From: Candidatus Eiseniibacteriota bacterium
Lineage (GTDB): Bacteria > Eisenbacteria > RBG-16-71-46
Direction: 5' to 3'
DNA length: 64,000 nt
NCBI GenBank assembly: GCA_963717505.1
Contig: OY970342.1
Span: forward strand, 2,560,001-2,624,000
The first letter of the stretch is position 1, and each line of letters starts with the position of its first letter. Below, one piece after another: positions 28,247-48,669 of this stretch. Made by a program: the position numbers and the translations under genes. A model generated the notes under the pieces. It was not told the DNA's origin. It did not search any database and saw only the letters and a list, made by a program, of their open reading frames with translations.

Positions 28247-28329
28247 GCCGGGATGGCGGAATGGTAGACGCAACGCACTTAAAATGCGTTGGGCGAAAGC
28301 CCGTGCAGGTTCGATCCCTGCTCCCGGCA
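28247..28329 (+). tRNA. tRNA-Leu(TAA)
   Basis: GCCGGGA/TCCCGGC acceptor stem, D-loop TGGCGGAATGGTAGAC, anticodon arm ACGCA-CTTAAAA-TGCGT, long variable arm GGGCGAAAGCCC, GGTTCGATCC; CCA not encoded. Confidence 0.95.
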
Positions 28330-34497: not shown

Positions 34498-34677
34498 CCT
34501 GCCACGCATGAGGCGCCCCCCTTCGCGCCGGCTGCCGCAACCGGCTGCGTCTCCTGCCCTCTGGGAACGGAACCGGATCGACCCACAACATCAGGTCCGC
34601 GTCGCGTCCATCCTCGTGCTTGGGACTCATCGCCCCAGCGTGCGCAGGCGGGGCCCGCCGTGAGACAGGAGACATCC

Positions 34678-36402
34678 ATGCGGAGTATCCCCCGTCCCAT
34701 GGCGCCGGTGTCCGTCGCCCTCCCTCTGCTCCTGATCGGCTGTCTCGCGGTCGCTCCAGCCCTGGCCGGCCCGAACCGGGGCAGTCTCGAGCCCAAGGCC
34801 AAGCCCAAGTCGGAGGACACTTCACCGGCCGCGGCGACCCCCTGGGAGACCCAGGCGCCGCCGGCCAACGACACCTGCGCTGGGGCGACCCTGATCGCCT
34901 GTGGCACGTTCGACATCAGCGGTACGACCGCCGAAGCCCTCGACCACTACACCTTCTCGCACGACACGCTGTCCTGTACGGGATTCGTGACCCCGGGACG
35001 CGACGTGGTCTACAAGTTCAACGCCGTCCCCGGCGACAGTATCTGGGTCGATCTCACGACCCCGGGTTGGGATGGCGCGCTCTACTTGATCACCGATTGC
35101 GCGCATGAGGACACCACCTGCTACAACGGCGAGGACGACGCGGGTGTCGGTGGCACCGAGTTCCTGCGCGAAGGAATCGTCGAGGCCGGGACCTACTACC
35201 TGGTCGTCGACACCTTCGAGCCCAATGGGGGCGGACCTTTCACGCTCCAGGGTCAGTTCCGTTGCGCCGGAACGCCGCCGCCGCCGTCCAACGACCGTTG
35301 CGACTTCCCGGCGCTCATCGCCTGCGGGCCGGTTTCGTTCAGCGGAACCACGCAGTACGCGAACAACAACTATCAGTTCCCGTCGACTGCGAACTGCACC
35401 GGCGTGATCTCGGCCGGGAGGGACATCGTCTACGTCATGAACGTGGTGGCCGGCGACAGCCTGTCGGCGAACTATCAGTCGACCGCGAACGGTGTCGCCT
35501 ACATCGTCCACGACTGCACCAATCTGGTGGGCACCTGCATCCGCGGCGTGAACGCGGTCGGCGCCGGCGGAACCGAGCTGATTCGCCACCAGTTCCTGTT
35601 CAGCGGCACGTACTACCTGATCCTCGATTCGGAGGGGTCGAATTCGTTCGGGACCTGGTCCTTGACCGGCGAATACCATTGTCCGAAGCCGCCGTCCAAC
35701 GACATCTGCGAAGGCGCCATCCCACTGCCTTGCGGCCCGTTCGAGCGCAGCGGCAGCACAGTCGCCGCGGTCAACAACTACAATCTGGTGGATTCGCTCT
35801 CGTGCACCGGCTATCGCGCCAGCGGGCGCGACGTCGTTTACAAGGTCTACGCGACCGCCGGGGACAGCCTGTGGCTGGACTACGCGATGCTCGGCGCCGA
35901 TGGCTCGGTCTACGTCGCCACCAACTGCAATGACGTCACCTATTCGTGTGTCGCGGGCGCCGACAACGTCGGTTTCAACGAAACCGAAATGCTCCGCTAC
36001 CGCTTCCTCAGCACCGGGGTCTATTACATCTTCATCGACAACTTCGGCACGGACGCCGGCAGCCACTACACGATCTCAGGCTGGATGGACTGCGCGAACA
36101 CCGCCGTCGGCTCGAACCCCGCGCGGGGTCTCTCGCTCGGCGCGCTCCATCCGAATCCGTTCCGCAATCAGACGACGATCCCGTTCGCGCTACCGGCCGC
36201 GGCCCACGTGAAGCTGGTCCTGGTCGATTTGCAGGGCCGGGTGGTCCGCACCCTCTACGACCGCACCCTGGCGGCGGGCTCGCACCAGACCACCTGGGAC
36301 GCCCGCGACGACGATGGCCATCCGGTCCATGCCGGGGTGTATTTCCTCAAGCTCTCCGGCCTCGACGGTGAGTCGGTTCGCCGCGCCATCGTCGTGAGGT
36401 GA
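34678..36402 (+). CDS. Secreted protein with three Cys-rich PPC-like repeats and C-terminal FlgD-Ig (T9SS-CTD-like) domain
   Basis: AGGAG RBS; signal peptide; repeats begin PPANDTC, PPSNDRC, PPSNDIC; C-terminus PNPFRNQT...WDARDDDG...AGVYFLKL. Confidence 0.85.
   Translation: MRSIPRPMAPVSVALPLLLIGCLAVAPALAGPNRGSLEPKAKPKSEDTSPAAATPWETQAPPANDTCAGATLIACGTFDISGTTAEALDHYTFSHDTLSCTGFVTPGRDVVYKFNAVPGDSIWVDLTTPGWDGALYLITDCAHEDTTCYNGEDDAGVGGTEFLREGIVEAGTYYLVVDTFEPNGGGPFTLQGQFRCAGTPPPPSNDRCDFPALIACGPVSFSGTTQYANNNYQFPSTANCTGVISAGRDIVYVMNVVAGDSLSANYQSTANGVAYIVHDCTNLVGTCIRGVNAVGAGGTELIRHQFLFSGTYYLILDSEGSNSFGTWSLTGEYHCPKPPSNDICEGAIPLPCGPFERSGSTVAAVNNYNLVDSLSCTGYRASGRDVVYKVYATAGDSLWLDYAMLGADGSVYVATNCNDVTYSCVAGADNVGFNETEMLRYRFLSTGVYYIFIDNFGTDAGSHYTISGWMDCANTAVGSNPARGLSLGALHPNPFRNQTTIPFALPAAAHVKLVLVDLQGRVVRTLYDRTLAAGSHQTTWDARDDDGHPVHAGVYFLKLSGLDGESVRRAIVVR
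34858..36096 (+). repeat. Three tandem ~140-aa protein domain repeats
   Basis: Each unit is PPxNDxC...ACG...SGTT...CTG...GRDxVY...GDS...C...C...GxYYxxxD; units start at ~34858, 35281 and 35689. Confidence 0.75.
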
Positions 36403-36463: not shown

Positions 36464-37711
36464 GTGACTCGGATCGTCCTGTTGGCCGCGACGAAGACCT
36501 ACCGGGCCGGTGCGTTCCTGGAAGCCGCCCAGGGCCTCGGAGTCGACGTGACCGTGGGCTCGGACCGCCCGCAAGCCCTCGAAGCGCTGAATCCGGCCGG
36601 GCATCTGCTGCTGAATCCGGGGGACGCTGCGGCTTCCGGCCGAAGCGTGGCCGCATGGGGTCGCACGCATCGGGTGGCGGCCGTGCTCGCTGCCGATGAC
36701 GACCTGGCGCTGGTGGCGGCCCATGCGGCCGCCGAATTGGGATTGCCCCACCATTCGGTCCGCGCGGTGAGCACGGCAAGAGACAAACGGCTGATGCGCG
36801 GGGTGCTCGCGCGCGCCGGCCGGCCGGGTCCCTGGTATCGCGGCTTCGAGCTCGATCACGATCCGGCCGACGCGGCGCGCCGCGTCGACTACCCATGCGT
36901 GATCAAGCCCGTGGATCTGGGGGCCAGTCGAGGCGTGATTCGCGCGAATCATCCGGGGGAGTTTGAGGCCGCCTTCACGCGATGCGTGCGGATTGCCGCC
37001 GATTCGGGTTCCCTCGGCCTGCTCGCCGAACAGTACCTGCCCGGCGACGAGGTGGCGCTCGAGGGGTTCGTTCACCACGGACGGCTCGAGGTCCTCGCGC
37101 TCTTCGACAAGCCCGATCCGCTGGCGGGCCCGTTCTTCGAAGAGTCGATCTACGTGACGCCCTCGCGGCATCCGGATCGGATCGTGAGCGAGGTGGTGGC
37201 AGAGGCGACAGCGTGTGTGACCGCACTCGGTCTCGATCACGGGCCGGTGCACGCCGAACTGCGGATCGACCAGGGGGTCGCCACGCTGGTGGAGATTGCT
37301 CCGCGTTCGATCGGGGGGTTATGCTCGCGAGCGCTGCGGTTCGCGGGTGGTCTTTCACTGGAGTCGGCCCTGCTGCGTTACCTGCTGGGGGCGGCCCCCG
37401 GTTCGCTGTCCCGCGAGGCGCTGGCGGCGGGCGTGATGATGATCCCGGTGCCGGCCTCAGGAACCCTGAAGACCGTGCGCGGCGTCGAGCAGGCGCGGCG
37501 GGTCGATGGGATCGAGGACATTCGGATCACGATTCCGGTCGGCGACGAGGTCGTGGCGCTGCCCGAAGGCTCCCGCTATCTCGGGTTCGTCTTCGCGCGC
37601 GGCGACCACCCGGATCTGGTGGAAGCGGCCTTGCGGGCGGCGCACGCACGGCTCGAGTTCGACATACGGCCGATCGATGCGTCACCTGCGGTCGCCATGA
37701 GGACCAAATGA
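36464..37711 (+). CDS. ATP-grasp ligase (L-amino-acid ligase-like)
   Basis: ARDKRLMR, YPCVIKP..LGASRGV, EQYLPGDE, GPVHAELR, VEIAPRSIGG. Confidence 0.88.
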   Translation: MTRIVLLAATKTYRAGAFLEAAQGLGVDVTVGSDRPQALEALNPAGHLLLNPGDAAASGRSVAAWGRTHRVAAVLAADDDLALVAAHAAAELGLPHHSVRAVSTARDKRLMRGVLARAGRPGPWYRGFELDHDPADAARRVDYPCVIKPVDLGASRGVIRANHPGEFEAAFTRCVRIAADSGSLGLLAEQYLPGDEVALEGFVHHGRLEVLALFDKPDPLAGPFFEESIYVTPSRHPDRIVSEVVAEATACVTALGLDHGPVHAELRIDQGVATLVEIAPRSIGGLCSRALRFAGGLSLESALLRYLLGAAPGSLSREALAAGVMMIPVPASGTLKTVRGVEQARRVDGIEDIRITIPVGDEVVALPEGSRYLGFVFARGDHPDLVEAALRAAHARLEFDIRPIDASPAVAMRTK

Positions 37712-38304
37712 TCACGATCACCGAGTTGGCTCAGGAGAGAATCGCCGCGTTCATGAAGGCCGAGAACCGCCCCAATCTCGCGCTGCGCTTCGCGGTCGAG
37801 GGACGAGGTCCGGGCGGATTCATGTATCGGCTCGCCTTCGTCGATGCCGCCGAACAGGCCGCCGACGATCGGGTGGTCGACGTCGGTCCGTTCCAGGTCC
37901 TGGTCGATGCGCGGAGCGTCGAGAGCCTCACGGGAGTGACGCTCGATTTCGTCGAGGGTCCGAACCAGAGCGGTTTCCGCATCGACAACCCGAACCCGCT
38001 GTGGACCGACTCGGTGGCGCTCGCGGTTCAGAAGGTGTTGGACGAGGAGATCAACCCGGCCGTGGCCACGCACGGGGGCTGGGTGGCGCTGCTCGAGGTC
38101 CGCGACGGAGTCGCCTACGTCCAGCTCGGCGGCGGCTGCCAGGGCTGCGGCATGGTCGACGTGACCCTGCGCCAGGGCATCGAGGTTCGGTTGCGCGAAG
38201 TGGTTCCCCAGGTGCGCGAGGTGGTGGACACCACCGATCATGCGGGGGGCGCCAACCCCTACTATCGACCGTCCAAGGGCGGCGGCGCGTCGCCGTACTC
38301 ATGA
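37708..38304 (+). CDS. nfuA: NfuA-type Fe-S carrier (degenerate A-type domain + NifU-C domain)
   Basis: MITITELAQ..., GFRIDNPN, INPAVATHGG, GGGCQGC, DTTDH..GANPYY. Confidence 0.88.
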   Translation: MITITELAQERIAAFMKAENRPNLALRFAVEGRGPGGFMYRLAFVDAAEQAADDRVVDVGPFQVLVDARSVESLTGVTLDFVEGPNQSGFRIDNPNPLWTDSVALAVQKVLDEEINPAVATHGGWVALLEVRDGVAYVQLGGGCQGCGMVDVTLRQGIEVRLREVVPQVREVVDTTDHAGGANPYYRPSKGGGASPYS

Positions 38305-39803
38305 ACGTCGAAGCGCCGGCCGCGGTTGCCGGCGCGACACGCCGGGTCCGGGTCGTTCTGCTCTCGACCTACGACCTGGGCCGCGCCCCGTTCGGCCTGG
38401 CATCACCTGCGGCCTGGCTGACCGACGCCGATTGCGATGTGCGAGTGAACGATCTCGCGGTCGAAGCCCTCGACGAAGAGGCGGTGCGATCGGCCGACCT
38501 GATCGCGTTCCATCTGCCGATGCACACGGCGACCCGTCTGGCGGTCGCGCGGCTGCCGCACCTCAAGGAGTTGAATCCACGGGCGCGTCTGTGTGCCTAT
38601 GGACTGTACGCGGCACTCAACGAAGAGCACCTTCGCTCGCTCGGCGTGGCGGACGTGCTGGGCGGCGAATTCGAAGCCAGCCTGGTCGAAGTGGCGCGCC
38701 AGCTCGGTGCGCCGGGCCTCGAGGACTCCGTCGCCGAGGGGGCGAGGGACCTGCCATCCGCTCCTCCGAGCCCCGGCGCGGACTCCGCCGCGCCGGCCAT
38801 GCCTCGCCTCCGTTTTCGGGCGCCCGCCCGCCACCTGCTGCCTTCGCCCGAAGCCTACGCACATCTGCATCTGCCGGATGGTACGCAACGTGTGGTGGGC
38901 TACACCGAGTCGACTCGTGGATGTCGCCATCGTTGCCGCCACTGCCCGGTGGTTCCGGTCTACCAGGGGCGAGTGCGCGTGGTTCAGCGGGAGGTGGTGC
39001 TCGAAGATGTGCGCCGCCAGGTCGCACGCGGGGCCCGCCATGTGACGTTTGGCGATCCCGATTTCCTGAACGGTCCGGGACATACGCTGCCTCTGGTCCG
39101 CGCGCTGCACGCCGAGCATCCGGACGTGAGCTGGGACGCGACGATCAAGATCGAACACCTGGTGCGACACGCCGCACTCCTGCCGGAGCTGGCGGCTCTC
39201 GGCTGCATCCTGATCACCAGTGCCGCGGAGTCCGTGGACGATCGGATCCTCGCGCGTCTCGAAAAGGGCCACACGCGTGCTGACTTCGAAAACGCCGCGC
39301 GACAGGTGCGGAACGCCGGGATCACGCTCCAGCCGACCTTCGTCGCCTTTACGCCGTGGACCACTCCCGAAGGGTGGTCGTCGCTGCTTGCCGCGATCGC
39401 CGATATGGATCTGGTCGAGCACGTCGCGCCGATCCAGCTTGCGATCCGTCTGCTGATTCCCGCGCGGTCACGACTGCTCGAGCTGGATGAGGTTCGCCGG
39501 CTGGCGGGGGCCTTCGACGGCGAGGCGCTGGTGTACCGGTGGCAGCATCCCGACCCGCGGGTGGACGCTCTGCAGCGGGACGCCGAGTCTCTGGCGGGTG
39601 AGCTGGCGCGGGAGCGCGCCCCTCGAACCGAGTCGTACGCTCGGTTGTGGGCGCTGGCCGAGCGCTTCGCGACGGCCGAGGATCGCGACCGCGTGGCGCG
39701 CGCGGCGTCGTATCGGCGGCCGCCGGTGCCCCACCTGACCGAGCCCTGGTACTGCTGAGCGGAGCCTCTCGTGGAGCCGGCGGCTCCGCTCGGGTCGATC
39801 TAG
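38301..39803 (+). CDS. CUAEP-tail radical SAM selenoprotein (B12-binding-like N-domain); TGA 39756-39758 = Sec
   Basis: RGCRHRCRHCP (CxxxCxxC). After EPWYC-TGA the frame continues AEPLVEPAAPLGSI-TAG (39801-39803), and a SECIS-like hairpin follows the TGA. Confidence 0.85.
39759..39796 (+). promoter_or_regulatory. Putative bacterial SECIS element
   Basis: 12 nt after the UGA: 8-bp stem GUGGAGCC/GGCUCCGC with a G-initiated apical loop (GGC) 21 nt from the UGA. Confidence 0.65.
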
Positions 39804-42800
39804 AAGCCCGGCTGGAAGCTGAACTGCCAGTACCAGCCCTTCTGCGGGCGGTCGTTGGGATGAACCAGATCCATCTCGGCGATCAGGAAGCCGAACAAGT
39901 TCATACGCATCGCGACTCCGTGGCTGCTGACGACGTTCTGCTGGCCGTTCCGATAGGTCGGATCGTCGCCCATGCCCCATGCCGAACCGACATCGAAGAA
40001 CGCCGCCAGTTCGACCGGCGGCATCATCGCGCTGCGCAGCACCCCGAGCGGGCCGAACACCGGCAGTCGGGCCTCGACGTTGGCCACGGCCAAGCGGCTG
40101 CCGAACAGGCGATCCCACGACTCGCACGGACCGAACCCGGTCGGGTCCTCGCACTCGCTGACCCGGAAGGACTCCTGGTCGTATCCGCGCACCAGGCTCG
40201 GGTAGCCGAGGAACAGGGAGCTCATCAGCGGGGACTCCGCGTCGGGACCATAACGGCCAAAGGTCAGAGCCCTGCCCGCCAGGGTCAGCGGCCGCATCGG
40301 CATCACGTAGTGCCGAAGGTCGAGCAGGAAGCTGTTGTAGACCAGGTCGCCGGCATAGACATCGAGCTCGATGCGCCCGCGGCTGCCGAGGACCGGGCTC
40401 GTGCCGCCAAACAACGAATTGTCGTGGACCAGGGCAACGATCCCGACCCCCATGTCGAGCGCCTCCGGATCGGCGTAGAAGCCGCCGGTGGTCTCGCTGA
40501 CCAGACGGCCGGAGCCGTCGTAGAGGCGCGTCGTCAACTCGCTCTCGAACCCGACACTGCGGAATCCGCCGGCGAACTCGATGCGCCGAATGCGGTCGAA
40601 GGGATAGGCCACGGTCCCGAGCGCGCGACGCTCGACCTGCCAGATGAGCGCGACGTCCTCCTGGGTGCCCTGCGAGCCATCGGGAAGCTGGACGACGTTG
40701 TACTCCAGGCCTCGGGTCAGATACGGGACCTGGCTCAACTCGACGCCCCAGTTCCAGCGCCGCCTCAGATTCCGATAGTCGAGGACCGCGGCGACGTTGT
40801 TCAGGAAGTTGCCGCCGTCCGAACTGATCTCCAGATAGGTGGCGAGATTGTGATCGCCGAGCATGTCGCTCCAGTAGAGTGTGGCGCCGCCGCCGCCCGA
40901 CACGCTGCCGCCACCGACGCCAAAGCCGATGCCCACCTGGGACACCTTGTCGAGTGACAGCGAGGGGCGATAACCCGTCTGCTCGAATCCGGTGGTGTCG
41001 ACCAGTCCCTCTTCGGGGTCTTCGAGCATTGATTGGACCTCCCCGCGCTCCGAAGTGATCGGCTGCATCCGGGTGCGGAAGTCCACGGTGTCGGTAGGCG
41101 CACTACGCGCATACGAGGGCGATCCGGCGAACGGCGGATCCTGGACGTCGTTCGGATCATTGAGGGCCTGCTCGCCGGCCGGCGGCAGGCCGATGTCCAG
41201 CGATTCGGGGAGGGCGCGAACGGTATTGGTCACCGCGAAATCGGGATAGTCGGGTGGCAGGATCCAGGCGGCCAGCGAGTCCGCTCCGAACACCAGCGGC
41301 TGACCTCTGGTCGACAACGAGTCCAGGGCGAAGATCGAATAGGCCCCGTTCTCGTAGGCCGCGAATACCATCCGATCGCCGGTGCGCGACACCGAGATGG
41401 CCGGGCTGGTGGCGGTCAGGCCGCTGACGCCGGTGCCGACGTTCGTGATCTGCGTCCAGGTCTGCGACTCGAGTTCGAGCCGGACCAGGTTCGGGATCCC
41501 GCCCGGCGCGGCGATGCAGTAGAGCGCGCGGCCGTCGGGCGACCACTGCGGGTTCAGGTGCTTGGAATTCGGCAACGACGGCAGCAGATGGACCGAACCA
41601 TCGGGAATGTCGAGCAAGGCCAGTCGCAGGTGGCCATGCGACAGGTTCTCAATCGGAGCGAATCGCTCGGTGATGAACGCGATGCTCTTGCCGTCCGGCG
41701 ACCAGGCCGGTTGCAGGTCGGCGGGCAGGTCGTTCGTCCACCGACGCACGCTTCCGGAGTGCAGATCGATCGAGAACAAGTCGGTGTGACCGCCCGCGAG
41801 TGCCGAGAACGCGATGGAACGGCCGTCGGGCGACCACGACAGCGTCCAGATCTCGCCGATTTCGCGCACGGAATATTGGCGGCGCGTCTGACCCGAGGCC
41901 ACGTCGATCACCTGGATCGCCGACCGCCCGTTGCGGACGGTCGCGAACGCGAACTGGCGGTTGTCGGGGCTCCATGAACCCGCGCCGCTGACGAACTGAA
42001 GGCTCTGCAGGTGGGGATCCACCGCGGTGCGCGTCACGCGCCTGCTGATTCGGCCGGTGTGCGCGTCGGCGAGATACAACTCGATCGAGAACAGATCCCG
42101 CTCCGAGAGGAACATCACCTGACGTCCGTCGGGGCTGAGCGAGGGCGCCAGGTTGTACACGCCGCGATCGCCGGTGGAGCCGATCAGGGGCTTGACCAGC
42201 GCGGTCGGCGGCTGCCCACCGACACGGTCGGACTGGGCGCGCAGCGCCCGATGCCAGTCCCGAGCCAGCGAATCGGTCGGCACCCCGAGGACTGCCGAGA
42301 AGGCCTGTTCCATCTCGATGCCCCTCGAGACCGCCTTGAGCAGTTCTCCGATCGCGCGATCGCCCCAGCGCTCGCCGACGTAGGACCACAGGGAGTGGCC
42401 CCAGCGATACGGGAAGTAGCGGTACTCGGCCAGGTGCGCGAGGTCGGGCAGTTCCTTGCCGCTGCGCACGGCGTCGCGCATCCACATCGAGGTGTGCGGA
42501 TCGATCGGGCCAATGGTCAGGTACTCCGCCATGCCTTCGATGAACCACAACGGCATGCGCATCGCGACCGATCCGCCGACCCGCGAACGACCCATGATGT
42601 CGTACTGGAACGCATGAACCAGCTCGTGGCCGACGACGTGGTCGGTCTCGGCCAGCGAACCCGAGAAGGGCAGCACGATGCGCCGCTTGACCGACTCGGT
42701 GACACCGCCGGTGCTCTCGTCCAGGTCGCCCTGAATCGCGTTGGTCTGTTCGAAGTGCGGGTGGCTGGCATACATGATCAGCGGCTGCCGCCCGGCCAGC

Positions 42801-43051
42801 TCGTGATTCAGCACTCGGGACAGGCGCGTGTACCAGCGTTCGGCCATCCGTGCGGCGGTCGGGATGGCGTCCGACTCCTCGCTGTAGTAGTAGACGTCGA
42901 AGTGTTCGGTCTTGAGGATGTCGAAATCGAAGGTCCGGTAGTTGACCTTGTTCCGGCCGAAATACTGGGCCGAGGCCGGGTTCGATCCGAGCACGAGCAA
43001 GACGGCGGCTGTCGCCAGCGGCCCGAGCTTGCGTGGCTGGCAAAAGGACAT
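39800..43051 (-). CDS. Zincin-like (HExxH) domain + PD40/TolB beta-propeller + BamA/TamA-like C-terminal beta-barrel
   Basis: Signal peptide then QYFGRNKV; HELVH and WFIEGMAEY; repeated WSPDG; VRGY barrel motif; terminal Phe (FSFQPGF). Confidence 0.82.
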   Translation of the reverse strand: MSFCQPRKLGPLATAAVLLVLGSNPASAQYFGRNKVNYRTFDFDILKTEHFDVYYYSEESDAIPTAARMAERWYTRLSRVLNHELAGRQPLIMYASHPHFEQTNAIQGDLDESTGGVTESVKRRIVLPFSGSLAETDHVVGHELVHAFQYDIMGRSRVGGSVAMRMPLWFIEGMAEYLTIGPIDPHTSMWMRDAVRSGKELPDLAHLAEYRYFPYRWGHSLWSYVGERWGDRAIGELLKAVSRGIEMEQAFSAVLGVPTDSLARDWHRALRAQSDRVGGQPPTALVKPLIGSTGDRGVYNLAPSLSPDGRQVMFLSERDLFSIELYLADAHTGRISRRVTRTAVDPHLQSLQFVSGAGSWSPDNRQFAFATVRNGRSAIQVIDVASGQTRRQYSVREIGEIWTLSWSPDGRSIAFSALAGGHTDLFSIDLHSGSVRRWTNDLPADLQPAWSPDGKSIAFITERFAPIENLSHGHLRLALLDIPDGSVHLLPSLPNSKHLNPQWSPDGRALYCIAAPGGIPNLVRLELESQTWTQITNVGTGVSGLTATSPAISVSRTGDRMVFAAYENGAYSIFALDSLSTRGQPLVFGADSLAAWILPPDYPDFAVTNTVRALPESLDIGLPPAGEQALNDPNDVQDPPFAGSPSYARSAPTDTVDFRTRMQPITSERGEVQSMLEDPEEGLVDTTGFEQTGYRPSLSLDKVSQVGIGFGVGGGSVSGGGGATLYWSDMLGDHNLATYLEISSDGGNFLNNVAAVLDYRNLRRRWNWGVELSQVPYLTRGLEYNVVQLPDGSQGTQEDVALIWQVERRALGTVAYPFDRIRRIEFAGGFRSVGFESELTTRLYDGSGRLVSETTGGFYADPEALDMGVGIVALVHDNSLFGGTSPVLGSRGRIELDVYAGDLVYNSFLLDLRHYVMPMRPLTLAGRALTFGRYGPDAESPLMSSLFLGYPSLVRGYDQESFRVSECEDPTGFGPCESWDRLFGSRLAVANVEARLPVFGPLGVLRSAMMPPVELAAFFDVGSAWGMGDDPTYRNGQQNVVSSHGVAMRMNLFGFLIAEMDLVHPNDRPQKGWYWQFSFQPGF

Positions 43052-43183
43052 GCGATTCCTCAGTAATCGACGCGCCCGGCCCCGAGTGGAATTTTTACGT
43101 CGGTTCCAGGCCGCCGGCCGCGCCTTTGGATTCCGCCGCTCCCGAAGAGGCTCTGGTATTGTAACTCGCGGGATGTCATCTCG

Positions 43184-43981
43184 ATGACAATGATGCCAGC
43201 ATCGGGGCCGGGAGGCGAGCCGGCCGCCGGTGACGCGCCGGCCCTGGAGTTTTCGGCAGTTCGCAAGCGCTTCGGCACGTTCGTCGCGGTCGACGGCGTC
43301 ACGTTCGAAGTGCCGGCGGGCCGGTGTACGGCGCTGCTCGGCCCGAGCGGCTGTGGCAAGTCGACCCTGCTTCGCCTGGCCCTCGGGCTCCTCAAGCCGG
43401 ACGAGGGTGCCGTGCGATTCGCAGGCCGCGACACGAGTGAACCCGGAATGCGAACGCGAATGGGCTACGTCATTCAGGACGGTGGCCTGTTCCCTCACCT
43501 GACCGCCGCCCAGAATCTCGGCCTCAAGACGCGAGACCTAGGCTGGCCGGCGGCGCGGATCGCACGGCGTATCGACGAAGTCGCCGGGATCGCCCGATTC
43601 GCCCGCGAGCTGCTCGGTCGCTATCCGCTGCAGCTCTCGGGCGGGCAGCGGCAGCGCGTCGGCCTGATGCGCGCCCTGATGCTGGATCCCGAGCTGCTGC
43701 TGCTCGACGAGCCGCTCGCAGCACTCGATCCGATCGTCCGCGCGGGCCTCCAAGAGGAGTTGCGGCGCATCTTTCGAGAGTTGAGGAAGACCGTGGTGTT
43801 CGTGACTCACGACCTGGTCGAGGCCGCCTACGTCGCCGACGAGATCGTGCTGCTCCGTGCCGGCCGGCTGGTGCAGCGCGGGCGGTGGCGGGACTTGAAG
43901 GACCAGCCGGCGGAGGATTTCGTTCGCGAGTTCGTCCGCGCCCAGCGCACGCTGCACGACGTCGAGGGAATCCCACAGTGA
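43184..43981 (+). CDS. ABC transporter ATPase, osmoprotectant/betaine (OpuA/EgtV-like)
   Basis: GPSGCGKST, GYVIQDGGLFPHLT, LSGGQRQR, LLLDEP, FVTHD. Confidence 0.92.
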   Translation: MTMMPASGPGGEPAAGDAPALEFSAVRKRFGTFVAVDGVTFEVPAGRCTALLGPSGCGKSTLLRLALGLLKPDEGAVRFAGRDTSEPGMRTRMGYVIQDGGLFPHLTAAQNLGLKTRDLGWPAARIARRIDEVAGIARFARELLGRYPLQLSGGQRQRVGLMRALMLDPELLLLDEPLAALDPIVRAGLQEELRRIFRELRKTVVFVTHDLVEAAYVADEIVLLRAGRLVQRGRWRDLKDQPAEDFVREFVRAQRTLHDVEGIPQ

Positions 43982-47694: not shown

Positions 47695-48669
47695 TCACTC
47701 CGCCACGTAGAGCGTTTGGGCGAACGACCACTCCGCATCCAGCCACTGCCCCTCGATCCGGAACGCCAATCGTTCAGCGAAGCCGGCGAGGTCGGAGTCG
47801 CGGAACTTGTGCGAGCTTTCGGTCCAGATCGTCTCGCCCTCGTCGAATTCGACGACCTGTCGTGCGGCCGGGACGCGCACCGTCTGGTGTTGGAGCGATG
47901 CGAGATGCATCTCGATTCGGCGCTCGTGCGCGTTCCAGCGGACCACGTGCCGGAAGCGGGACAGGATGAAGTCGCCGCCCAGCTCGCGATTGATGCGTAC
48001 CAGCAGATTGCGGTTGAAGGCCGCGGTGACCCCGGCCGGGTCGTCGTAGGCCAGGACTAGGCGCTCGACCTCCTTCTCCATGTCGGTGGCCAGGAGCAGG
48101 CGATCCCCGGGTTGCAGCAACCGCCGCACTTCGCCCAGGAACGCGGAGCCCGCCTCGCGGTCGAAATTGCCGATCGTGCTGCCGAGGAAGAGAACGAGCA
48201 GGGCCTGATCCGGCTGCCGGCGCGCGACCGCCGCGCGCAGGCCGTCGAGGTACTCGGCCTCGAAGCCGACGATGGTCACCGAATCGATGCGATCCAGCTC
48301 GCGTCCGGCCTGGGTCAGCGCCGACATCGAGATGTCGATCGGGCAATAGGTCACGGGACCGCGCCGCGCCAGGACCTCGAGCAGCGTGCGGGTGTTTCGC
48401 GCGCTGCCGCTCCCCAGCTCGGCCACGACTGCGGACCCGGGGACCGGGCTCAGGATCTCTTCGGCGTGGCGGTGAATCAGACGCTCGCCAGCCCGGGTCA
48501 GACCGTACTCCGGCAGGAACGTGATCGCCTCGAACAGCGCCGACCCGACCGCGTCGTACAGATACTTGCTCGGTAGCTCCTTCTGGCCGGCGCGGGTCAG
48601 ACCTGCGCGGACGTCGTCGGCGAAGCGCACCGAGGGCGCACTGGCGTCGAGCGAGATGGTGAGCGCCAC
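47695..48669 (-). CDS. egtD: L-histidine N-alpha-methyltransferase
   Basis: KELPSKYLYD, LPEYGLTR, ELGSGS, FLGSTIGN, AYDDPAGVTAAFN, IWTESSHKF. Confidence 0.92.
   Translation of the reverse strand: MALTISLDASAPSVRFADDVRAGLTRAGQKELPSKYLYDAVGSALFEAITFLPEYGLTRAGERLIHRHAEEILSPVPGSAVVAELGSGSARNTRTLLEVLARRGPVTYCPIDISMSALTQAGRELDRIDSVTIVGFEAEYLDGLRAAVARRQPDQALLVLFLGSTIGNFDREAGSAFLGEVRRLLQPGDRLLLATDMEKEVERLVLAYDDPAGVTAAFNRNLLVRINRELGGDFILSRFRHVVRWNAHERRIEMHLASLQHQTVRVPAARQVVEFDEGETIWTESSHKFRDSDLAGFAERLAFRIEGQWLDAEWSFAQTLYVAE

Follow-up and report, generated by a model that had tools for sequence, protein, structure and literature searches.

The closest characterised relative of the gene described here is ArsL, the C-As bond-forming radical S-adenosylmethionine (SAM) enzyme of arsinothricin biosynthesis. 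Two preprints, in the portions available, describe an ArsL with a CxxxCxxC cluster that yields a 3-amino-3-carboxypropyl radical, and with an RCCLKC tail that holds As(III) via all three cysteines, carries no auxiliary cluster, and is required for C-As bond formation while being dispensable for SAM cleavage. Here we describe a radical SAM gene in a 64,000-nucleotide (nt) stretch of Candidatus Eiseniibacteriota DNA (contig OY970342.1 of assembly GCA_963717505.1, positions 2,560,001 to 2,624,000; hereafter the window). From its sequence, UGA 39756-58 of this gene is almost certainly read as selenocysteine (Sec), which gives the protein a Cys-Sec-Ala-Glu-Pro tail.

This tail defines NCBIfam family NF040546, "CUAEP/CCAEP-tail radical SAM (seleno)protein". 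In the available portions of the Haft 2022 preprint (10.1101/2022.07.06.499078), NF040546 appears as an uncharacterised protein with a rare CU motif. That preprint was the only relevant paper recovered for CUAEP/CCAEP in the full-text literature, and neither the accession nor the name of the family occurs in the main text of a 2026 review of the prokaryotic selenoproteome (PMC13188914). The family is thus a named but unstudied group of selenoproteins, and the close tie of its genes to an amino-acid ligase and to Fe-S helper proteins, described below, merits the attention of biochemists.

A radical SAM gene with an almost certainly recoded UGA

The radical SAM frame of the window reads CCC TGG TAC TGC TGA GCG GAG CCT, placing the TGA directly after ...PWYC, and continues in frame past the TGA for 14 sense codons (AEPLVEPAAPLGSI) to a TAG (Table 1). 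The start ATG shares an ATGA with the stop of the upstream gene, and the first 20 codons contain no other ATG, GTG or TTG. At the other end, the TAG interlocks as CTAG (39800-39803) with the stop of a convergent open reading frame (ORF), which occupies 39800-39802. A preliminary description of this DNA had reported these codons, the TGA, the extension, the TAG, the interlock and a downstream hairpin, and we located each of them where it had been placed. It had also stated that gene callers truncate this protein; the statement holds for the mechanical ORF list made with translation table 11, in which the frame terminates at 39758, and our result extends to that list only.

When compared with NF040546, the read-through protein scored 616.2 bits against a cut-off of 500 (609.8 bits in the whole-genome profile search), with residues 18-494, including the Sec site, matching profile positions 1-466 of 468. 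The C-[C/U]-A-E-P motif of the family is present as C485-U486-A487-E488-P489, and its CxxxCxxC motif as C208, C212 and C215. The gene is therefore a member of this family: it matches the profile over its full length, has the CxxxCxxC motif, carries a W-[YF]-C-[CU]-A-E-P tail in which Sec takes the second place of the pair, and shows no structural difference from the family. The existence of such a family, which the preliminary description had stated, is borne out by this match across the Sec site. The Sec-tail feature is real, was correctly interpreted and is already catalogued, as the curated family name itself states it.

In the family alignment (98 of 105 extracted sequences, the 7 short ones having been left out), the sole invariant cysteine columns are the three cluster cysteines, C485 and U486 (U read as C). 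Because only these three plus two cysteines are invariant, NF040546 lacks an auxiliary-cluster motif. Taken as a whole, the best explanation of the locus, with a probability of about 0.9, is Sec recoding of UGA 39756-58 in a coupled operon, with an ArsL-type function entering as a conjecture. The protein would accordingly be annotated as 500 aa with Sec486, rather than as 485 aa.

Homologues alternate between cysteine and selenocysteine

The preliminary description had proposed aligning homologues for Cys/TGA alternation and for conservation of the AEP residues. We observed both: the Sec site is Cys in 77 homologues and TGA in 28 (window included), and AEP follows it in 77/77 and 28/28 of these loci, respectively. 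A lack of conservation past the TGA, which had been named as grounds for rejecting the recoding, was not seen.

Among 80 related loci on public contigs, 77 encode W-Y-C-C-A-E-P, with TGC or TGT at the Sec site, two encode W-F-C-TGA-A-E-P and one is cut. This 77:2 ratio of Cys to Sec forms is biased, as one scan pattern spelled EPWYCCAE, and profile searches reverse it. An unbiased profile search of the phylum of the window found NF040546 above cut-off in 29/206 genomes; 26 of the 30 loci kept reach the tail, all 26 with TGA, and the other four stop at contig edges. An evenly drawn sample of Acidobacteriota gave 48/301 genomes above cut-off. There, 45 of 50 strong matches have one TGA, three reach the tail without a TGA and two fall short, giving a Sec share of 45/48 among tail-reaching matches. 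We fetched 44 of the 45 TGA loci: 42 carry a strict W[YF]C-TGA-AEP, one is a CU-SEP variant, and for the remaining one the motif was not found within the 301 nt fetched. This second phylum added 42 Sec forms and 3 Cys forms to the comparison. Sec forms are therefore the rule in both phyla whose genomes were sampled without bias (26/26 and 45/48). Three elements of these data rest on one unpublished genome (G206): a single Sec row (L049), one of the selD results, and the genome at the centre of the Acidobacteriota sample.

As a separate observation on search design, back-translated patterns that span the Sec site hide Sec forms (77:2, against 26/26 and 45/48 Sec).

A conserved SECIS-type hairpin follows the UGA

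Published criteria for the bacterial selenocysteine insertion sequence (bSECIS), as given in the available text of the 2026 review (PMC13188914), are a loop of 3-9 nt, a stem of 4-16 bp, a G as the first or second nucleotide of the loop, a UGA-to-loop distance of 16-37 nt and a minimum free energy (MFE) of -7.5 kcal/mol or below. The hairpin past the UGA (Table 1) agrees with all of them, with its 8-bp stem, a GGC loop that has G first, 20 nt from UGA to loop and -13.0 kcal/mol (z = -3.59; 0/200 shuffles fold as well). The bSECIS geometry claimed for it in the preliminary description is thus upheld, by these published limits and by the covariation of its stem. Like bacterial SECIS elements in general, of which E. 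coli fdhF is the prototype, the element is a hairpin within the coding sequence just past the UGA, with a small G-first loop; its 20-nt spacing and its energy fall inside the bSECIS limits. It differs in that its loop is just 3 nt, it lies inside the last 14 codons and it matches no Rfam model. Most family members have 5-nt loops, for example AGUUG, AGGUG or CGGCG.

To follow the stem across the family, we used a gapless alignment of the 28 Sec forms that starts at the Cys codon. The aligned helix has 7 bp, joining columns 19-25 with 31-37, and RNAalifold recovers the same helix. Paired cells amount to 87.2%, versus 49-58% in controls with the partner shifted by 1-3 columns; changes on both sides occur in 5/7 pairs (22 cells, versus 1-9 in these controls), and 0/500 shuffles reach the covariation score. 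Sec forms L106-L108 and L128, whose pairing is displaced by one column and whose loops are 4 nt long, were counted as unpaired in this analysis.

The Sec and Cys forms differ in this stretch. All seven scored stem pairs are present in 22/28 Sec forms versus 1/77 Cys forms, at least six of seven in 25/28 versus 3/77, and the mean MFE of the hairpin stretch is -12.95 kcal/mol in Sec forms versus -3.83 kcal/mol in Cys forms. The five Cys forms with high G+C are still weak folders, averaging -6.7 versus -12.95 kcal/mol for Sec forms. In Acidobacteriota, at least six of seven pairs form in 39/42 Sec forms, and the three Cys forms have 3-4 pairs (0/3); registers 54-57 were permitted in this comparison, and 41/42 used 55 or 56. 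From these data, the SECIS of the CUAEP-tail family is well defined.

We also considered a longer stem, in which GCGGAGCC takes part, as the functional form. It was rejected, as the proximal hairpin alone is conserved and covarying; the longer fold is limited to sequences that repeat Glu-Pro codons.

The genome encodes selenocysteine machinery

The source genome is a single contig of 4.16 Mb. Its profile searches returned selA (566 bits), selB (345 bits), selD (347 bits) and, about 170 nt past selD, a tRNA-Sec (67 bits), each above its cut-off; ARAGORN also calls the last as tRNA-SeC with anticodon tca (UCA). The preliminary description had named selA, selB, selC and selD as genes to look for and the absence of Sec machinery as fatal to its reading; all four genes are present.

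The selD gene lies outside the window (G000:C1:3020964-3022149, locus L010/L014) and itself contains one in-frame TGA, within the motif VACAGUAAK. The Sec of this motif probably occupies the active-site Cys/Sec position of SelD, in which case the organism makes use of Sec decoding. A hairpin, GGGUCC-GGC-GGACCU, begins 11 nt past the selD UGA and has a CC-GGC-GG apex in common with the radical SAM hairpin; by itself it folds no better than shuffles.

A second element with some resemblance to tRNA-Sec is present in the window at 28247-28328 on the + strand (G000:C1:2588247-2588328). It scores 43.5 bits with the tRNA-Sec model, under the gathering score of 47, and is probably an ordinary long-arm tRNA.

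The radical SAM gene closes an operon with a ligase and an NfuA-like gene

Upstream of the radical SAM gene lie genes for an L-amino-acid-ligase-type ATP-grasp protein, with weak NCBIfam matches to the BacD and DdaF ligases, and for an NfuA-like Fe-S carrier, which scores 117 bits with the NfuA model TIGR03341, under its cut-off of 269. Both junctions (ligase/NfuA-like and NfuA-like/radical SAM) are ATGA overlaps. The locus shows the radical SAM gene as the last member of an operon, ligase/NfuA-like/radical SAM, that the DNA predicts to be translationally coupled.

This association recurs in other genomes. In 59/80 public loci, the radical SAM gene has a ligase homologue as its same-strand neighbour, usually directly downstream at a median distance of 7 nt; the downstream flank is shorter than 100 nt in four of the 21 loci that have no ligase. 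Searched by tblastn, the 30 same-phylum loci contain a ligase in 25 cases and an Nfu gene in 23. In the 17 of these loci with 9-kb flanks, the ligase is found in 16 and the Nfu cluster in 12, and anything else in at most nine. Across the 206 genomes, 27 have both the radical SAM gene and the ligase, two the radical SAM gene only, three the ligase only and 174 neither, in a tally that compares two search lists and includes related, hence not independent, genomes. One of the two radical SAM-only genomes has its locus at a contig edge and the contig of the other stops inside the Nfu gene; two of the three ligase-only genomes hold radical SAM fragments. These genomes show a ligase and a radical SAM enzyme that are inherited together, with almost perfect co-occurrence across the 206. 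In Arenicellales with unlinked genes, the ligase was found elsewhere on the chromosome in 3/3 genomes tested.

Several observations concern the neighbourhoods of these genes. In Arenicellales loci L024-L044, the radical SAM gene lies directly behind SufS-, SufU- and SufT-like ORFs, named by eye. In 39/80 loci (within L022-L101), the ligase gene is followed, about 1.4 kb past the radical SAM gene, by a YggX-like ORF of about 114 aa (Fe(2+)-trafficking, also named by eye). The ligase homologue beside the radical SAM gene contains an in-frame stop (TGA or TAG) in genomes G105, G132 and G038, which could reflect a pseudogene, a sequencing error or another recoding. No transporter, methyltransferase or resistance gene is common to all of the 17 same-phylum loci. 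In 8-9 of these 17 (L132, L133, L135, L136, L142, L143, L146 and L147, with the pump also in L141), a membrane-fusion gene of the HlyD family and an AcrB-type RND pump gene lie 1.3-5 kb downstream of the radical SAM gene and mostly share its strand; this pair is absent from the window and could be a product exporter or a coincidence. OsmC is found in 5/17.

Predicted structure and comparison with ArsL

The AlphaFold2 model of the protein has an overall predicted local distance difference test (pLDDT) score of 86.7 and a predicted template modelling (TM) score of 0.87. Its top structural matches are AprD4 (TM 0.64), OxsB (up to 0.65) and TsrM (about 0.53), and we order the folds with AprD4 closest, followed by cobalamin-bound TsrM and OxsB. 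These are radical SAM enzymes with an N-terminal cobalamin-binding-type domain, and the model resembles these enzymes in fold; they and the other top matches have 11-19% identity to the protein, and none of the three has a Cys-Sec tail. Pfam Radical_SAM matches with 51.6 bits and Pfam B12-binding with 23.3 bits, under its gathering score of 32.1. By sequence, AprD4 was the only match in the PDB (E = 1.2e-5). No ArsL structure was among the matches listed in the PDB sequence and structure comparisons.

ArsL (NF040542, RCCLKC-tail radical SAM) is the second-best family for this protein, at 269.7 bits against a cut-off of 450, with a match spanning residues 19-428. Like ArsL, the protein has a single CxxxCxxC cluster motif, a C-terminal tail rich in Cys and no auxiliary cluster. 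Unlike ArsL, it has no RCCLKC arsenite-binding motif and carries instead a CUAEP tail about 57 residues past the end of the ArsL alignment; its partners are the ATP-grasp ligase and the NfuA-like protein, and no homologue of ArsM or ArsQ was seen in the neighbouring genes that we examined.

A model for recoding and function

Recoding of this codon follows established SelB/SECIS biology. With the ribosome at UGA 39756-58, the hairpin at 39771-39789 would sit just beyond the mRNA channel and recruit SelB-GTP-Sec-tRNA(Sec), Sec486 would be inserted, and decoding would carry on for 14 codons to TAG 39801-03, producing a 500-aa NF040546 member that ends ...EPWYC-U-AEP.... In the steps that we propose by analogy with ArsL, an unconventional cleavage of SAM by the single [4Fe-4S] cluster would give a 3-amino-3-carboxypropyl radical, which would attack a soft atom on the flexible vicinal Cys-Sec tail. 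The ATP-grasp ligase would then join the resulting unusual amino acid to another amino acid, and delivery or repair of the cluster would fall to the NfuA-like protein. Sec would serve as a better-binding or more reactive stand-in for Cys and would not point to selenium as the substrate.

That the enzyme works like its sister family ArsL is a tentative proposal, which may more easily prove wrong than right. Still more speculative is its extension to a widespread soil and marine pathway of ligase, NfuA and CU-tail radical SAM enzyme, in which ArsL-type chemistry on a non-selenium soft atom (sulfur or a metalloid), held on a swinging Cys-Sec arm, might yield a new non-proteinogenic amino acid that the ATP-grasp ligase makes into a dipeptide. 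Several findings speak against the functional part of the model. The ArsL match stops at profile position 407/423, before the RCCLKC motif, such that the two tails are analogous and unaligned; the tail here has two thiol or selenol groups, not three; and no substrate, resistance gene or methyltransferase is conserved nearby in the same-phylum loci with 9-kb flanks. The pLDDT of the predicted tail is also only moderate to low, at 66 for residues 481-490 and 40 for residues 491-500, values that are consistent with a mobile arm. If the ArsL-type pathway were correct, this Sec would be the first demonstrated case of a selenol that holds the substrate in radical SAM chemistry. Carbon-metalloid bond formation is rare, and the only characterised relative carries it out; a cultivable host of a Cys form or a U486C construct would therefore make the chemistry testable.

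Alternative explanations

The recoding itself has one rival, to which we give almost no credence: the TGA could be an ordinary stop, with the protein ending at Cys485 and the downstream frame and hairpin reflecting chance or a transcription terminator. Translation table 11 does close the ORF at the TGA, and the gene stands at an operon end, where a hairpin could be a terminator. In addition, GCGGAGCC, right behind the UGA, pairs with the same 3' arm to form a longer competing stem, and the fold of the wider region, which prefers that stem, is by itself no better than chance (z = -0.8). The contrast between Sec and Cys forms is partly confounded by G+C content (0.68 versus 0.52 in the hairpin stretch) and by the kinship of the Sec forms. 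An Rfam scan of 39600-39900 at E <= 10 gave no match, which carries little weight as Rfam has no generic bacterial SECIS model. An ordinary stop, however, would not explain why AEP is kept past the TGA just as it is past Cys, why the NF040546 model aligns across the site, or why the hairpin is in phase with the codons, covaries and has no T run behind it, in a genome with complete Sec machinery. We therefore retain Sec recoding. A different question is whether selenium is itself the substrate, the module then making a seleno-amino acid with a C-Se bond. The dominance of Sec forms in two phyla and the presence of selD in Sec-form genomes would fit such a product, but 6/10 module-bearing Cys-form genomes have no selD match (E <= 1e-30), three of these six being Arenicellales assemblies titled as single chromosomes. 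As the module therefore works without selenophosphate, we consider selenium as substrate very improbable.

The role of the tail is more open to debate. Thioredoxin reductase has a selenenylsulfide in its C-terminal arm, and the Cys-Sec pair of the present protein, vicinal and at a flexible C-terminus, could be a redox centre for electron or hydrogen-atom transfer to a radical intermediate instead of holding a substrate atom. Sec/Cys interchange is typical of redox sites, according to the accessible part of one report (PMC1794560). The Haft preprint (10.1101/2022.07.06.499078), as far as its available portions go, describes the CU motif as rare in selenoproteins and its shared use as suggestive of heavy-metal interaction, and gives no function for NF040546. 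Against a redox role, the only characterised relative binds its substrate with its Cys tail, as the available portions of the ArsL preprints describe, and no thioredoxin-like or reductase partner is conserved among the neighbours examined. We regard this role as unlikely, although it and substrate holding are not mutually exclusive. Sulfur insertion is another candidate, in which the tail would receive a persulfide or small Fe-S unit from NfuA or Suf proteins and C-S bond formation by the SAM radical would lead to an amino acid resembling homocysteine or methionine. NfuA rebuilds the sacrificed cluster of lipoyl synthase, and Fe-S-handling neighbours occur in unrelated lineages: NfuA-like proteins in the phylum of the window, SufS-, SufU- and SufT-like ORFs immediately before the radical SAM gene in 12-14 loci, most of them from Arenicellales, and the YggX-like ORF in 39 loci (the latter two by eye). 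The methylthiotransferase MiaB is a further structural match of the model (TM about 0.5). These helpers may, however, merely serve the radical SAM cluster, the closest folds (AprD4, TsrM and OxsB) are not sulfur-insertion enzymes, and two invariant non-cluster cysteines are too few for a classical auxiliary cluster. Sulfur insertion thus appears quite improbable. An auxiliary Fe-S cluster on the tail was considered separately and is unlikely, given only these two cysteines.

Features of the locus and its surroundings

The features of the operon and its convergent neighbour are listed in Table 1. The convergent ORF, which is not part of the module, has clustered homologues in just 3/17 same-phylum loci.

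Table 1. Coordinates of the predicted operon, the Sec tail and the adjoining gene in the window
Feature	Position	Strand	Basis and details
L-amino-acid-ligase-type ATP-grasp gene, 415 aa, first in operon	36464..37711	+	Pfam ATP-grasp_4 (90 bits), LAL_C2 (64.5 bits), ATPgrasp_N
NfuA-like Fe-S carrier gene, 198 aa	37708..38304	+	IscA/HesB-like domain and NifU C-terminal domain; Pfam NifU (79 bits), Fe-S_biosyn (53 bits)
CUAEP-tail radical SAM selenoprotein (predicted), full coding sequence	38301..39803	+	500 aa, Sec at residue 486
CxxxCxxC motif, ligand of radical SAM [4Fe-4S] cluster	38922..38945	+	C208, C212, C215 (translation)
TGC TGA, Cys485-Sec486, UGA almost certainly recoded	39753..39758	+	Codons and homologue comparison
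Ala-Glu-Pro codons behind UGA	39759..39767	+	A487, E488, P489; invariant in 98/98 aligned sequences and in alignment A2
SECIS-type hairpin GUGGAGCC-GGC-GGCUCCGC	39771..39789	+	8-bp stem, GGC apical loop, 12 nt past UGA
TAG, predicted real stop of the selenoprotein	39801..39803	+	Window sequence, translation
Convergent gene, 1232-aa ORF, outside the module	39800..43498	-	Genuine gene by Pfam PD40, Omp85, Peptidase_MA_2

Two further genes of the window were recorded in passing. The ORF 60 nt upstream of the operon (34660-36402, + strand) encodes a secreted protein of 580 aa, which contains internal repeats about 140 aa long and a type IX secretion C-terminal sorting domain (Por_Secre_tail, FlgD_ig); its homologues form clusters in just 4/17 same-phylum loci. 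On the - strand, 47695-48669 encodes an EgtD-type L-histidine N-alpha-methyltransferase (297.3 bits, cut-off 290.9), which suggests ergothioneine-type biosynthesis nearby.

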